A stretch of DNA of 54,429 nt, taken from the IMG/VR virus record IMGVR_UViG_3300009788_000023, positions 1-54,429 of that record; one strand, 5' to 3'. This document shows, one piece after another, positions 6,602-37,863 of the stretch. The translations under genes and the position numbers were made by a program. The notes under the pieces were generated by a model, which was not told where the DNA came from, did not search any database, and was given only the letters and a program-made list of their open reading frames with translations. Source of the stretch: a virus (taxonomy: Duplodnaviria; Caudoviricetes). Position 1 is the first letter of the stretch. Every line of letters begins with the position of its first letter.

Positions 6602-6951
6602 AATTCCCCTTTCGCCTTCAGCCGTTCGTGCTTCTCGGCCATGGTTTCCTTGTACGTCAGTTCGTCGTCCCAGCGGCCTTGGTTCAGCCATGTGGACGGG
6701 TTCGGGATGTATTTCTTGTCTTTCCATTCCTCTGATTTTAACTGTTTTTTGAGCGCCTCTAACATTATTAAAGCTAAATTAACCTTTGAATTGATTTTAA
6801 TATAGCATTTTTTTGCATATCCCTTACCGACCTTTTTGGGATACAGCTTCCAGAACACTTTGAATGATACAGCAAGTAGCTTTTTCTTGCTCACTTCTGG
6901 CTGAAAGAATTTTAAGAAGGTCTGGGTCATTAAGGCATAAGCTTTCCACAA
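6598..6951 (-). CDS. Phage replication initiator C-terminal-like domain protein
   Basis: FWKLYPKKVGK and YIPNPSTWLNQGRWDDE motifs; start uncertain. Confidence 0.7.
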   Translation of the reverse strand: MWKAYALMTQTFLKFFQPEVSKKKLLAVSFKVFWKLYPKKVGKGYAKKCYIKINSKVNLALIMLEALKKQLKSEEWKDKKYIPNPSTWLNQGRWDDELTYKETMAEKHERLKAKGEL

Positions 6952-7253
6952 TGCGGACAGGATTCTACTGGAATCTCTTCTGTGATTAGAATTAAATCAC
7001 TTGGGTTGAAATTGAACACTTTTTGTATCATGCCGCCTTCAAAAACCCTCGGTGTATCAAACTCAAGAATGATTCCGAGATATCCTCCGTTATTACGGAT
7101 AACTTTCCCCGTCTCTCCATAGAAAAAATGAAAATCTTGGCACGGGGTTATTACTTTTGCTTTTGCGCCGACAGGGAAATCCCCATGTTTGTTTTTCTCT
7201 GTTTTGTGCTGTTTTTTTAGTTCTTTCGACAATTCTAACATGCTTTTGCTCAT
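6930..7253 (-). CDS. Hypothetical protein (SH3/KOW-like beta domain, C-terminal CPHCG)
   Basis: ORF track; GAAGG RBS. Confidence 0.6.
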   Translation of the reverse strand: MSKSMLELSKELKKQHKTEKNKHGDFPVGAKAKVITPCQDFHFFYGETGKVIRNNGGYLGIILEFDTPRVFEGGMIQKVFNFNPSDLILITEEIPVESCPHCGKLMP

Positions 7254-7363
7254 TTTTACCTTCTTTCTTTTAAGACCGAGTTCCTACGCATATTAACAAT
7301 GCGCTACCAACACCTACGATATTCTCCTTGGCTATCCATAGCCCTTGCTTATGCGTTGCGGGC

Positions 7364-7423
7364 GGACCCGGGTACTGCATTACGGTACCGTCTCGGGATA
7401 GGTCCTCGTCGATAGCTGAGACG
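7364..7423 (-). ncRNA. Putative pseudoknotted RNA element
   Basis: Stem CGTCTC/GAGACG; loop GGACCT pairs with downstream GGGTCC; intervening GGTAC/GTACC hairpin. Confidence 0.35.
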
Positions 7424-7501
7424 CTTTATCCATCCTTGGAAGTAAAAAAGGAAGGCCGAAAAAGCTTTGTGTATCATAACGGAGTAGGAGTTGCAAAAAG
7501 G

Positions 7502-7621
7502 TGCAGGCAGGCAGTTGGTACTGCGATTCATATGGCAAGCACTACAAGTTTGACCGCGGATTATTCTGACATTGGTGAAATCACCAAAACTACGAATCCG
7601 GTTCCTGCGCCGCTGCCTGCA
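7502..7621 (-). ncRNA. Putative multibranch structured RNA
   Basis: Closing stem GCAGGCAG/CTGCCTGC; inner CGGATT/AATCCG and TTGGTG/CACCAA stems. Confidence 0.4.
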
Positions 7622-7724
7622 TAAATTATCTTGAAAAGTTCGGGGACTGGCCATAATCGTGCGCCAACACAAGCCAATCCCCATGTCACGGAAATGACAT
7701 AAATTGTCTGAAAAATTAGGTGCC

Positions 7725-7811
7725 TGGCGGGCAGAAGTTGCATCTACGACCTGTGGGTATGCCTTGCGGCAGTGACCCACCGCTCTAACTATCGCATCTG
7801 AGCTACCGCCA
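7725..7811 (-). ncRNA. tRNA-like RNA lacking an anticodon loop
   Basis: TGGCGG TA GCTC AGATGCGATAGTTA GAGC G GTGGGT CAC TGCC-GCAA-GGCA T ACCCAC AGGTC GTAGA TGCAACT TCTGC CCGCCA folds as a cloverleaf. Confidence 0.65.
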
Positions 7812-7812
7812 T

Positions 7813-7894
7813 AAAAAAAGCCCTGTGAAGAATACTGGTCAGAGAATTCCACAGAGCCTTTATAAGCACCTAATTGTATTTGACCAGTATCCAT
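7813..7894 (-). promoter_or_regulatory. Leader/attenuator element A
   Basis: ATACTGGTCA (7881-7890) complementary to terminator loop TGACCAGTAT (7832-7841); stem GGCTCTGTG/CACAGGGCT + T-run. Confidence 0.6.
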
Positions 7895-7902
7895 AAGAAA
7901 CA

Positions 7903-7931
7903 ACTATATCAACCTTCCTCACATTTGTCAA
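7903..7931 (-). promoter_or_regulatory. Sigma-70-type promoter
   Basis: TTGACA-17-TATAGT. Confidence 0.8.
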
Positions 7932-7943
7932 TATAAAAATAAA

Positions 7944-8213
7944 TTATTTCTGAGATTCATTGAGTTCGTTAAAAGCAGTACATAATCTCATAAAGATATG
8001 TTGCACATTTCGGGGGTGCTCTAATTGCTCAAGGCCCCATTTTTCTTGGTCGGCCTTATCTATTAGCATGTCAAGAGTAGTCTCTATGCCACAAAGCTCC
8101 TGTTCCCGCAGGCGTTTATTCTCGGCTCCCAAGTGGTTTATGAGCTTAACGACGTGCTTATCCATATTGTCTGGATTGTGGAATTTCCAGAAGTTTTCGA
8201 ATTGCTCAGACAT
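7944..8213 (-). CDS. Hypothetical protein
   Basis: GAGG RBS; ORF track. Confidence 0.65.
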   Translation of the reverse strand: MSEQFENFWKFHNPDNMDKHVVKLINHLGAENKRLREQELCGIETTLDMLIDKADQEKWGLEQLEHPRNVQHIFMRLCTAFNELNESQK

Positions 8214-10260: not shown

Positions 10261-10506
10261 TTACTCGCTACTCAGTAAATCGTTCGGATCGAGCCATTCT
10301 GCGTAAACTATAACGCCGGTCAATTTGACGATATCGCCCTGTTCGACGTACATATCAGGGCCCAAGTTCCAGCCTGTGTGCGGGGCTCTCTGTCCTTCCA
10401 GTACTGGGGATATCATACCGTCACCCCTTTGGCACCCGCACAACGGCAGGCACAACGGCAGGCACAACGGCAGGCACAGTAGTAAACAAATTAGAATCCG
10501 TTTCAT
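10261..10506 (-). CDS. Lipoprotein
   Basis: MKR + hydrophobic stretch + LCGC lipobox; AAAGGA RBS. Confidence 0.65.
   Translation of the reverse strand: MKRILICLLLCLPLCLPLCLPLCGCQRGDGMISPVLEGQRAPHTGWNLGPDMYVEQGDIVKLTGVIVYAEWLDPNDLLSSE
10438..10478. repeat. 12-bp tandem repeat (GCACAACGGCAG x3.4) in the lipoprotein signal peptide
   Basis: Direct reading; encodes (LPLC)n. Confidence 0.9.
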
Positions 10507-10534
10507 AATATGTCCTTTCGAAAAAAGTTAATAG

Positions 10535-10609
10535 GGCGATAGGCGGGATTTGAACCCGCAACCCCCGGAATCACAGTCCGGTGCTCTAACCAGTTGAGCT
10601 ACTTTCGCC
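10535..10609 (-). tRNA. tRNA-His (GUG)
   Basis: GGCGAAAGTAGCTCAACTGGTTAGAGCACCGGACTGTGATTCCGG...GGTTCAAATCC...; G-1:C73 present; CCA not encoded. Confidence 0.9.
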
Positions 10610-16374: not shown

Positions 16375-16616
16375 AATGCCCAAAATGCCAAAGGAAAACC
16401 GAAGTAACAGACTCCCGACCAGCGCCAAATAACAGAATTAGGCGCCGAAGGGGTTGTCCAAATTGTTCTCATACCTTTACAACTTATGAATCAACCGATA
16501 TTAGCGAGGACAAGGCCAAGTTATTGAGAATGCAGGAAATACAACTGAAGTTGATAGACAAACGAGTCCGTGCATTGCAAGCTTTGATGCGCAGAATGGA
16601 GAAGGCAAGTGTCTAA
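16371..16616 (+). CDS. NrdR-like N-terminal zinc ribbon protein lacking the ATP cone
   Basis: MKCPKC..T.VTDSR....IRRRRGCPNC..TFTTYE. Confidence 0.8.
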   Translation: MKCPKCQRKTEVTDSRPAPNNRIRRRRGCPNCSHTFTTYESTDISEDKAKLLRMQEIQLKLIDKRVRALQALMRRMEKASV

Positions 16617-17634
16617 AGCATGGGTAACAAAGACTAAATCAGGCAACTTTCAAGTGTCATGGTACGAAGGACGCGACCAAAACGGCAAACTCAAGAAACA
16701 TTCCAAAGTACAGTATTCCCGGGACCAGGCCGAAGGATTCAAGGCCGATATTATACACAAGCTCAATCGCGGACTGACTACAAGCCTTCTGGCTGTGCCA
16801 TGGGACCAACTCAAATACGAATACATCGAGGCAAAGCAGGCCGAAAGAAAGGCCAAAGCGACGATAATCGAGATAGTAGGCATGTTCAAGCGTTTCGAGC
16901 GACTTGTCGGCCTACTGCGGTCCACGGAGCTCCAACAGGAGCACCTTGACAAGTTTAAGCGACTCCGAGGGAACGAATGCAAGTCGGCCAACACTCTGAA
17001 TAAGGATTTAGCCAACCTCAAGGCGTTCGTTCGCTATTTTTCCATCGACAGGGCTTATATTAGGCCGTATATGGTCATTAAGCAGGTCAAGGCGACTGTT
17101 AAGCCTGTCCGGGCGCTGACTGAGGAACAGATCCAAAGCCTTTTGTGTTCGTTAAAGCAAAACAGCCGGCCATATTATATTCGGGCCTTGCTTGCGCTCT
17201 GTGCCGGTCTGGACGTTAGCTCGATAGACTACATCCGGATTCAGGATATTCATTTCGAGGACGATACGATAGATACGTTCCGGCCTAAGAAGAGTAAGTG
17301 GCACGCTATGCGCCCTATTCAAAGTGCTGTTATGAATGAAATCGCCGACTTCTGGTTGCATCAAAAGGACGGGCAGGTTCGGTTATTGCCGGATAGATAT
17401 ACCTGGTACGCGTGGAATCAACTGTGCGATAGTGCCGGTATAAACTCGACTTTCCATAATCTTCGCAAAACCTACGCAAGTATGCTCGTCAAAAAAGGCG
17501 TTTCTTTGGCTGTCGCGCAGGGCTTACTTGACCACCAGTCGATTGAAACAACTCGAAAGTTCTATCTCGACATAACCGGGGAAGAAAAAAAGGCAGCCGA
17601 TAGTTTACCGGCAGCCTCTTGGATTGGCCGATAG
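16609..17634 (+). CDS. Tyrosine recombinase/integrase (box I Arg replaced by Asp)
   Basis: SANTLNKDL, HNLRKTYA, LDH...TTRKFY; box I reads AGLDVSSI. Confidence 0.85.
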   Translation: MSKAWVTKTKSGNFQVSWYEGRDQNGKLKKHSKVQYSRDQAEGFKADIIHKLNRGLTTSLLAVPWDQLKYEYIEAKQAERKAKATIIEIVGMFKRFERLVGLLRSTELQQEHLDKFKRLRGNECKSANTLNKDLANLKAFVRYFSIDRAYIRPYMVIKQVKATVKPVRALTEEQIQSLLCSLKQNSRPYYIRALLALCAGLDVSSIDYIRIQDIHFEDDTIDTFRPKKSKWHAMRPIQSAVMNEIADFWLHQKDGQVRLLPDRYTWYAWNQLCDSAGINSTFHNLRKTYASMLVKKGVSLAVAQGLLDHQSIETTRKFYLDITGEEKKAADSLPAASWIGR

Positions 17635-22135: not shown

Positions 22136-22266
22136 CTGTCAATTTTCCTCCATTCCATCCATTTCCCACAGTTATCGCATCTGGTTTTGATTACATTGGC
22201 GTCGTGGATTTCCTGTTTGTGGCATTTTGGGCATTTCCACTTAAATTGTTCGAGTGTATTTTCCAT
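22132..22266 (-). CDS. Small zinc-ribbon protein (44 aa)
   Basis: MENTLEQFKWKCPKC...RCDNCG; manual translation. Confidence 0.55.
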   Translation of the reverse strand: MENTLEQFKWKCPKCHKQEIHDANVIKTRCDNCGKWMEWRKIDR

Positions 22267-37744: not shown

Positions 37745-37785
37745 GATTTGTCCCTCAAATTACGTTTATATTTAATCCTCCTGAA

Positions 37786-37858
37786 TAGCAGCGTCGGGAT
37801 TCGAACCCGAGACCTTGTGGATATGAGCCACATGAGATAACCGCTTCTCTACGCTGCG
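37786..37858 (-). tRNA. tRNA-Met (CAU), initiator-like
   Basis: CGCAGCG TA GAGA AGCGGTTA TCTC A TGTGG CTCATAT CCACA AGGTC TCGGG TTCGAAT CCCGA CGCTGCT A; C1xU72, A11-U24. Confidence 0.88.
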
Positions 37859-37863
37859 ATGTA

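Follow-up and report, generated by a model that had tools for sequence, protein, structure and literature searches.

What use might a phage have for a transfer RNA (tRNA) shape that cannot decode? When phage tRNA genes are discussed, it is usually as a supplement for codons or as a substitute for host tRNAs that have been cleaved. The question is raised by an element on the minus strand of the virus record IMGVR_UViG_3300009788_000023 (Caudoviricetes), here called the window, which is a complete virus record of 54,429 base pairs (bp) with direct terminal repeats. A first-pass annotation, made from the letters alone, had noticed there a tRNA mimic with a hairpin in place of the anticodon loop. 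Our analysis supports the view that the element is neither chance nor coding sequence but a tRNA-derived cloverleaf that cannot decode, and it stands directly behind a predicted attenuator whose helices are kept in relatives. Tentatively, we favor reading the element as a non-decoding, tRNA-derived processing or scaffold module. If this holds, an anticodon-less tRNA fold behind a conserved attenuator would mean that phages reuse the tRNA shape as such a module, a reuse known so far from eukaryotic long non-coding RNAs, plant mitochondria and laboratory tRNA scaffolds.

A cloverleaf without an anticodon loop

The coordinates of the element and of its surroundings are collected in Table 1. The 6-bp acceptor, the U8 and A9 that follow it, A14 and G15, the 5-nucleotide (nt) variable loop and the 5-bp T stem with its 7-nt loop are all read directly on the minus strand, as the first-pass annotation had listed them. 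G26 comes between the D stem and the anticodon stem, and 25/25 stem pairs of the cloverleaf are standard. Acceptor and T stem together make an 11-bp stack, with a U-rich leader on the 5′ side and a conserved AU-rich trailer on the 3′ side; CCA is not encoded. The base triples of the tRNA core are textbook knowledge, and the core tertiary bases of the element are all present (U8-A14-A21, G15-C48, G26-A44, 9-12-23, 10-25-45 and 13-22-46).

The anticodon arm has lost its loop, as had been claimed, and a 7-nt anticodon loop with U33 is not present in the element. The further claim that the anticodon stem runs straight on into a GNRA hairpin needs amending, since the 4-bp stem with its GCAA (GNRA) cap is set off from it by a bulge of 3 nt (7774-7772) and by a lone U (7759). 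Thus, the 18 nt between the strands of a 5-bp anticodon stem consist of the bulge, the 4-bp helix and the GNRA cap. An archaeal tRNA with a bulge-helix-bulge intron was considered and rejected. Such introns have 3-nt bulges on both strands around a 4-bp helix, whereas here the 5′ strand has the only such bulge and the 3′ strand just one nucleotide. Excision at the bulge and the loop would moreover leave an 11-nt loop and not a 7-nt one.

At the elbow the element has A18, G19, U54, G55, C56, A57 and A58, with the pair A53-U61. Our tRNA reference consists of 133 distinct ARAGORN-called tRNAs from 194 comparison loci (1.73 Mb), a set that the detector biases towards canonical tRNAs. U55 is found in 133/133 of these, G53-C61 in 129/133 and the GG of the D loop in 126/133. 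Their D loops measure 6-11 nt, and the 14 nt of the element exceed the longest. The elbow had been called intact at first pass, which is overstated in view of G55, A53-U61 and the 14-nt D loop.

Tests of membership, chance and coding

The element falls outside the tRNA, C4/CI, YrlA, transfer-messenger RNA (tmRNA) and intron-tRNA families by the tests that define them. The tRNA model of Rfam (RF00005) gave no match to the element at the gathering score, nor at E≤10 on 601 nt or 106 nt. The Rfam models for C4, Y RNA and tmRNA gave none even at E≤10 on 106 nt; the only Rfam matches at E≤10 were weak chance matches (SNORA23, SymR and a Giardia snoRNA). ARAGORN did not call the element at default settings, with or without introns, and produced a distorted fold only at a 70% threshold. 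A pseudo or undetermined call by tRNAscan-SE or ARAGORN had been expected; ARAGORN was run, and there was no usable call. For tmRNA, ARAGORN -m found nothing at an 80% threshold, and pair 3-70 of the element is G-C and not G3.U70. The suggestion that the element might be a C4 or a Y RNA is likewise not borne out, as there is no Rfam match and no gene for Ro60 in the phage: a search of the whole phage for Ro60/Rsr TROVE (PF05731) gave no match at E≤1, while control genomes matched as expected.

In the window, a structure-only cloverleaf descriptor matched the two real tRNAs, the element and nothing else. On dinucleotide shuffles it gave 0.62 matches each (n = 210; 117 shuffles with none, 62 with one, 24 with two and seven with three), so that the cloverleaf structure by itself is not significant. 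If U8, A14, A21, U54, C56 and A58 are also required, this rate is multiplied by ∼4e-4, an estimate from base frequencies and not a shuffle count. Given canonical bases at canonical places, a chance origin of the cloverleaf is negligible. Folded alone, the cloverleaf has −34.6 kcal/mol as compared to −36.0 for the minimum free energy (MFE) fold, and within a 197-nt context it equals the MFE fold. With a single-sequence model built from the element, the tRNA-His of the phage itself reaches 34.3 bits, and unrelated phage tRNAs reach 30-40 bits. Because this model scores ordinary tRNAs and the core bases are canonical, we take the element to be derived from a tRNA.

The promoter of the locus has an 89-amino-acid (aa) gene just upstream of it, and a 690-nt gap separates this gene from the next minus-strand gene (6930-7253). 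Inside the gap are two long open reading frames (ORFs), with codon scores of −0.117 and −0.007 bits per codon. For comparison, the scores are +0.09 to +0.29 for seven neighboring genes, −0.046 for an eighth (10261-10506) and −0.10 to −0.14 for antisense ORFs known to be spurious. Neither gap ORF has a Pfam or PHROG family. One of them, ORF 7349-7903, reads in frame through the terminator hairpin and U7 tract described below.

A T loop that fits a second known type

As set out in PMC4810234, residue 18 of tRNA lies intercalated between positions 4 and 5 of the T loop, position 3 forms a pair with residue 19, and pseudouridine 55 is in contact with G18. T loops outside tRNA are mostly UGNRA, according to the account in bioRxiv 10.1101/2022.12.26.521914, with (YGNRA)NY as the full consensus, UGHAA favored, and an intercalating base that is almost always adenosine. 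The T loop of the element, UGCAA followed by CU, fits the (YGNRA)NY class, and A-G stands where tRNAs have G18-G19. The first-pass annotation had seen the D-loop and T-loop changes as a matched pair, and they indeed match the UGNRA-plus-adenosine type. The combination of G18A and U55G would thus correspond to a switch between two known T-loop types, and not to destruction. Because A18 and G55 match this type, the three-dimensional fold of the element may still be under selection; this is the strongest internal argument that we have, and it is drawn from the sequence. The riboswitch and intron UGNRA loops described in the same preprint are like that of the element in loop class and intercalating adenosine. 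As described there, the UGNRA loops of the FMN and cobalamin riboswitches dock in dedicated receptors, whereas the partner in the element would be the D loop of a tRNA-derived fold.

The cloverleaf follows a predicted attenuator

The element is preceded by a sigma-70-type promoter with TG before its −10, and transcription is predicted from the sequence to start at about 7896. In a nascent leader starting at 7896 the 12-bp helix between strands a and a′ (−21.7 kcal/mol) is the MFE fold and excludes the terminator-like hairpin (−17.2 kcal/mol). The two cannot coexist as a pseudoknot because no loop nucleotides lie between a′ and the 3′ strand of the terminator, which is a geometric argument. A further perfect helix, P1, brackets exactly the terminator hairpin and the cloverleaf. 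On modeled folds this is the architecture of an intrinsic terminator and antiterminator, with mutually exclusive helices before a U tract that are kept in relatives; termination itself is predicted.

The 201-nt minus-strand region folds at −68.3 kcal/mol (z −4.48), a value matched in 0/200 shuffles, and the plus strand of the same region folds less well (−57.8, z −2.56). Two inverted repeats, both perfect over 10 bp or more, lie between 7700 and 7900. Two or more of these were found in 0/5000 shuffles (shuffle mean 0.012) and in 2/543 overlapping 201-nt windows of the genome, among which the locus is expected to be. The downstream region 7712-7495 is also structured (z −3.12; matched in 0/200 shuffles). 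Aligned locally, copies 1 and 2 of the trailer motif score 32, which was reached in 0/300 shuffles.

Some further observations concern the same locus. A weaker promoter-like site, with 9/12 consensus positions, is seen at 7653-7625 on the minus strand. The leader, whether it came from termination or from RNase P cleavage, would be a small RNA of ∼85 nt with a hairpin and a U tail. Minus-strand positions 7502-7712 hold two hairpins and a third closed module, each followed by the same GC-rich-then-U-rich trailer motif. The translations of relatives also show this motif, two or three times in each locus, and the whole resembles small RNA modules arrayed in tandem. The position of the 89-aa gene would suit a regulator of the attenuator.

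Conservation seen through ORF translations

Public gene calls annotate the locus (P0051/P0053) as hypothetical protein, and this miscall led to relatives. A HMMER scan of 1.84 billion representatives with the translation of ORF 7349-7903 returned the query itself and P0054-P0057, with E values of 3e-9 to 1e-4. These four are also annotated as hypothetical proteins, and the ORFs of the set have 142-201 aa. The relatives are known as peptides, and everything said of their RNA rests on degenerate back-translation of the ORFs, in which one third of positions is uninformative.

In the alignment of the five ORFs a gap-free block of 30 residues corresponds to 7894-7805, that is to strand a, the 5′ strand of P1, the terminator, the U tract and the 5′ strand of the acceptor. 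A second conserved block (9-12 residues, three or four homologs) corresponds to the 3′ strand of the acceptor, the 3′ strand of P1 and the trailer, and further blocks to the second trailer and, in 5/5 translations, to the 3′ end of the third module. The U tract is kept as F-F-Y/C codons in 5/5 translations. The a-to-b loop, 7880-7862, is the most conserved stretch of the ORF translations.

The helix a-a′ is pairable at 12/12 positions in all four homologs, despite 3-5 pairs in each with a forced base change on one or both sides. As a register control the partner strand was slid by 1-4 nt, which left 3-10/12 pairs, and among the other windows of the 90-nt leader 0/61 reached 12/12 in each of the five sequences. 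P1 is pairable at 10/10 positions in three homologs, with one forced C-G to U-A change (P0055), and the lower stem of the terminator at 11-12/12. The leader replacements are non-conservative as amino acids (D-T with Q-Y here vs. N-D with R-R in P0057) and exact complements as RNA. Since the helices stay pairable despite forced, non-conservative replacements, we conclude that the conserved object is the RNA and that the ORFs are gene-calling artifacts.

What varies is the sequence flanked by the acceptor strands. Counted from Y/C codon to N/D codon, it has 99 nt in our phage, 81 in P0056, 78 in P0057, 93 in P0055 and 90 in P0054, so that the central element of the relatives is 6-21 nt shorter. 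The best cloverleaf of P0056 and P0057 is in register with ours and has a 6-bp acceptor, a 4-bp D stem with a 7-nt loop, a 7-nt anticodon loop and a 5-nt variable loop. The peptide of P0056 allows a canonical T arm (G53-C61, U55, C56 and A58), and its D loop has GG; in P0055 the anticodon loop measures 11 nt and position 55 is C. The inferred anticodons of the relatives begin with A34. Two-sided forced changes that still pair are found at 28-42, 29-41 and 53-61 in P0056 and at 53-61 in P0057; pair 53-61 is A-U here, G-C in P0056 and U-A in P0057. We regard the cloverleaf structures of the relatives as plausible, not proven. The difference of 18 nt to P0056 equals the 7-nt excess of the D loop plus the 11-nt excess of the anticodon loop. 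As the relatives are shorter and two of them fit a normal-size cloverleaf, the D-loop and anticodon insertions look specific to our phage, and both are probably lineage-specific. This touches what the first-pass annotation had named as evidence against itself, closest homologs that are normal tRNAs together with an insertion unique to this contig: it is what we see in part, for two of the four relatives and through translations only.

A possible pathway and its known counterparts

We propose a phage tRNA gene as the ancestor of the element, with decoding lost and every helix, the core tertiary bases and the contact between T loop and D loop retained. A transcript from the promoter would first fold the 12-bp antiterminator a-a′, which would block the terminator hairpin with its U7 tract and let the polymerase proceed through the cloverleaf. 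With the 3′ flank transcribed as well, the best thermodynamic fold is predicted to combine P1, the terminator hairpin and the cloverleaf. The cloverleaf would be the part that host tRNA-processing enzymes recognize. RNase P might cut at the end of the U7 leader, with U as the −1 base, and RNase Z or RNase E might trim the CCA-less 3′ side inside the conserved AU-rich trailer. The products would be a leader RNA with hairpin and U tail and a presumably stable tRNA-shaped RNA, and a transcript of several modules would be punctuated in this way. Whatever either RNA might do downstream, a variable body with conserved flanks fits a module of which only the helices are needed.

Parts of this pathway have precedents. 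RNase P, RNase Z and the enzyme that adds CCA recognize the acceptor/T-arm and the elbow, and not the anticodon, according to PMC4810234. tRNA scaffolds with a hairpin insert replacing the anticodon stem-loop are reported in PMC3753655 to be processed and stable in E. coli, and the phage RNAs C4, CI and M3 are processed by RNase P (PMC11143913; PMC5499578). Both genuine tRNAs of our phage, tRNA-His and tRNA-Met, lack an encoded CCA, and the host must therefore add it. This fits a host using RNase Z and a CCA-adding enzyme.

In its architecture the element resembles a tRNA scaffold, a t-element or mascRNA. The engineered scaffold of Ponchon and Dardel, as described in PMC3753655, also keeps the acceptor, T arm and D arm and has a hairpin insert for the anticodon stem-loop; it is man-made and has canonical D and T loops, whereas the element occurs naturally, combines a T loop of the UGNRA type with an enlarged D loop, and is only conjectured to be processed. 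mascRNA/menRNA and plant mitochondrial t-elements are presented in PMC11693755 and PMC1920247 as non-decoding, tRNA-shaped modules of longer transcripts that recruit RNase P/RNase Z to define ends. They are eukaryotic or organellar, and the element is from a phage. The element shares with t-elements and mascRNA the acceptor/T-arm stack, a single-stranded 5′ leader and a position at the junction between RNA modules. The tRNA-like domain of YrlA, in the description of PMC4201824, mimics the D arm and T arm with tRNA tertiary contacts, is a substrate of tRNA enzymes and is in some cases phage-encoded. Its acceptor is closed by a loop, its ends leave on the anticodon side and its gene lies beside Ro60; the element is the opposite, with an open acceptor and a closed anticodon arm. 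In a limited coverage of the literature we found no description of a phage cloverleaf with a replaced anticodon loop, or of a unit made of an attenuator and a tRNA-like RNA. The locus thus offers a compact natural test case for a tRNA elbow rebuilt with a UGNRA T loop and for antiterminator/terminator control of a non-coding payload.

Weighing the readings

Several observations weigh against a processing or scaffold module. P1 ties the 3′ trailer to the far 5′ leader and could hinder RNase P. The element leaves the reference range at three points, G55, the rare A53-U61 and the length of the D loop, which could be mere damage. No part of the locus is less conserved than the tRNA-like body. P0057 has an apparent T loop of 4 nt and hence no elbow, so that the tRNA shape may not be selected. 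The fit of the homologs to a cloverleaf is not significant alone, as 5-15/100 residue-shuffled peptides match the informative pair count, and it is measured on sequences that are known only as peptides. Finally, all five ORFs are open in one frame despite variable segment lengths, which the RNA view can attribute only to ascertainment. The main rival is a dead tRNA gene. On that account the locus normally delivers a working, attenuator-controlled tRNA, which here was recently inactivated by a 7-nt D-loop insertion, an 11-nt anticodon-loop insertion and T-loop changes, and only the flanks are selected. The exact agreement between the two insertions and the 18 nt by which P0056 is shorter is in favor of it, as are the normal cloverleaf geometry that P0056 shares with P0057 (21 nt shorter), the compatibility of P0056 with a canonical T arm and GG in the D loop, the failure of the element in ARAGORN and Rfam, and the best matches of its model being ordinary tRNAs (30-40 bits, including the phage’s own tRNA-His). 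Against it, 0/25 stem pairs are broken despite at least four changed conserved positions and two insertions, the change at 53-61 is compensated, the inserted anticodon segment is a perfect 4-bp helix with a GNRA cap, and G18A with U55G converts one T-loop type to another. The flanking helices are perfect in this phage, and the relatives are not clearly canonical themselves (A34 anticodons; the 4-nt T loop of P0057; the 11-nt anticodon loop and C55 of P0055). We consider a dead tRNA gene possible, if on balance doubtful.

The processing or scaffold module has also to be set against functions in trans. In an immunity RNA of the P4 CI or P1 C4 kind, the P1 3′ tail of the processed RNA would pair with the 5′ strand of P1 in nascent leaders and cause termination, giving autoregulation or superinfection immunity. 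P4 CI and P1/P7 C4 are RNase P-cut RNAs from untranslated leaders of temperate phages that exert control via premature termination and complementarity in cis, and PMC4825925 describes processed P4 RNA as pairing upstream and downstream of itself to cause premature termination. Our phage is temperate, as argued below, and unites promoter, untranslated leader, terminator and processable RNA; P1, a complement that is perfect over 10 bp, lies within the antiterminator loop and covaries in P0055, and a variable body with conserved flanks would also suit heteroimmunity. CI and C4 are, on the other hand, hairpin-like RNAs that lack a T loop and pair with targets via their own loops (PMC5499578), and Rfam C4 does not match the element. 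The cloverleaf loops have no above-chance complement in the locus or the genome (D loop, top of the anticodon arm and T loop; best non-self duplexes at z ∼−4 to −4.7), and a-a′ could stay closed even with a loop paired in trans. We hold such an RNA to be improbable. A wider version is unlikely too, namely an undescribed phage RNA family of switch-gated, tRNA-shaped RNAs with a UGNRA elbow, in which the 3′ tail pairs to the leader through P1 and sets termination, as an RNA-only autoregulation or immunity circuit matured by host tRNA-processing enzymes. The decoy role raised at first pass found no evidence and seems very improbable. A sponge for host proteins that bind the tRNA shape (defense nucleases, modification enzymes or the CCA-adding enzyme) would profit from the retained acceptor, T arm, core triples and plausible elbow and from the missing anticodon, and phage tRNAs are described as countering tRNA-targeting defenses in PMC10264068. 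Yet the known anticodon nucleases need the anticodon loop that the element lacks, searches of the phage for PolyA_pol and TROVE revealed no gene for tRNA repair or otherwise related to tRNA, and P0057 apparently lacks a proper T loop. It is hardly credible, lastly, that the 184-codon ORF 7349-7903 on the minus strand is a real gene with an incidental cloverleaf. The ORF is called in public data (P0053), aligns with four others that are open in the same frame across the variable segments, and has a Shine-Dalgarno-like purine run 9 nt before its TTG start. Its codon score is nevertheless that of spurious antisense ORFs, it belongs to no Pfam or PHROG family, it has an in-frame terminator hairpin and U7 tract, its non-conservative leader replacements exactly preserve an RNA helix, and no homolog of 101-322 aa besides itself was found among 5.8 billion proteins.

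Phage setting and other loci

The minus strand holds nearly all genes of the phage. A portal protein, a major head protein, the large terminase and RecE/RecT-like proteins were identified, together with a C5 DNA methyltransferase, a Holliday-junction resolvase and a tyrosine integrase (16609-17634). Because of the integrase and the identified gene set we take the phage to be temperate. None of the sequencing runs listed for the phage is an RNA run; among those that match, only the probable source run covers 7300-8200, and a second run matches methyltransferase motifs only. Relatives of RecT with 65-70% identity exist, and scans with a RecT profile gave 161 loci at ≤42% identity.

Searches with nucleotide patterns and neighboring proteins gave no homolog of the element. 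A ‘distant’ blastn search of 7600-7950 against cultured phages had no match, exact or gapped patterns of the element had 0 matches in IMG/VR, and the gapped pattern had 0 in metagenome contigs. A T-loop pattern gave five loci, none of which matches the element model at E≤1. Scans of IMG/VR with the RecT and portal proteins found no close relative, and the 161 RecT-relative loci had no match below E = 0.1 to a single-sequence covariance model. The peptides of the five ORFs had no tblastn match in the 194 comparison loci, nor did P0056 and P0057 in cultured phages. A degenerate leader pattern was found 0 times in one metagenome-assembled genome and 0 times in 401 genomes of its phylum, which carries little weight as the host of the phage is not identified.

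Other identities of the element were rejected: an attP remnant, with the integrase 9 kb away; a replication origin, with no skew turn and no iterons; and an antisense target, with 11-mers at the chance rate. The best duplex, between the D arm/D loop and the plus strand at ∼22171-22185 (13 bp; z −4.7 among 10,878 windows), falls in an unannotated plus-strand ORF and is taken as chance. There is also a 15-nt same-strand identity between 7765-7751, in the 3′ half of the anticodon arm, and 33700-33686, in the coding region of a 770-aa gene, for which ∼0.02-0.04 are expected by chance; it shows no extended similarity.

Table 1. Positions of the cloverleaf, the attenuator locus and other tRNA or tRNA-like genes. 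Positions in “window” refer to the 54,429-bp record; L numbers are other viral contigs.
Feature	Sequence	Position	Strand	Details
tRNA-derived cloverleaf without anticodon loop	window	7812->7724	minus	direct reading, descriptor, folding
Acceptor stem	window	7811-7806 with 7730-7725	minus	6 bp; A.G mismatch at 1-72
D stem	window	7803-7800 with 7785-7782	minus	4 bp; A14, G15 present
D loop	window	7799-7786	minus	14 nt
Anticodon stem	window	7780-7775 with 7758-7753	minus	6 bp; whole arm 7780-7753
Variable loop	window	7752-7748	minus	5 nt
T stem	window	7747-7743 with 7735-7731	minus	5 bp; last pair A53-U61
T loop	window	7742-7736	minus	7 nt; UGCAA then CU
Sigma-70-type promoter	window	7931-7903	minus	−35 7931-7926, 17-nt spacer, extended −10 7908-7903; 11/12 consensus
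Antiterminator 5′ strand (a)	window	7892-7881	minus	pairs with a′ 7841-7830; holds 10-bp perfect inverted repeat, 12 bp with flanks
P1 5′ strand	window	7875-7866	minus	10-bp perfect repeat with 7723-7714; in 201-nt MFE fold
Terminator-like hairpin	window	7861-7816	minus	loop and upper stem contain a′; −17.2 kcal/mol
U7 tract	window	7819-7813	minus	closes terminator, abuts cloverleaf
P1 3′ strand	window	7723-7714	minus	begins 2 nt past acceptor 3′ end; U run after
Trailer motif, copy 1	window	7698-7728	minus	31 nt; overlaps acceptor 3′ end and P1 3′ strand
Trailer motif, copy 2	window	7620-7651	minus	after hairpins 7700-7683 and 7682-7642
Third structured module	window	7502-7621	minus	closing stem 9-12 bp; U run after
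89-aa gene just upstream of promoter	window	7944-8213	minus	no family; homologs on three short ENA contigs, 71-94% identity
tRNA-His, ordinary	window	10534-10608		ARAGORN/Rfam
tRNA-Met, ordinary	window	37785-37859		ARAGORN/Rfam
Aberrant tRNA-like gene	L184	9196-9283	minus	12-bp anticodon arm, 6-nt loop
Aberrant tRNA-like gene	L185	2934-3020	plus	anticodon arm with tetraloop cap
Aberrant tRNA-like gene	L170	3225-3314	minus	extended or capped anticodon arm
Aberrant tRNA-like gene	L178	5287-5385	minus	extended or capped anticodon arm; also palindromic D-loop insertion
Aberrant tRNA-like gene	L171	5534-5618	plus	extended or capped anticodon arm
Aberrant tRNA-like gene	L187	4897-4982	plus	extended or capped anticodon arm

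A broad pattern scan turned up aberrant tRNA-like genes in other viral contigs, with canonical T loops and extended or capped anticodon arms, which are not homologous to the element. ARAGORN calls the six listed in Table 1 tRNA-??? or does not call them. The extended anticodon arm is thus probably a wider phenomenon than this family. Six further loci (L165, L167, L175, L176, L177 and L179) carry class-I-looking phage tRNAs (Val, Pro and Ile) with a long extra arm in the variable region.

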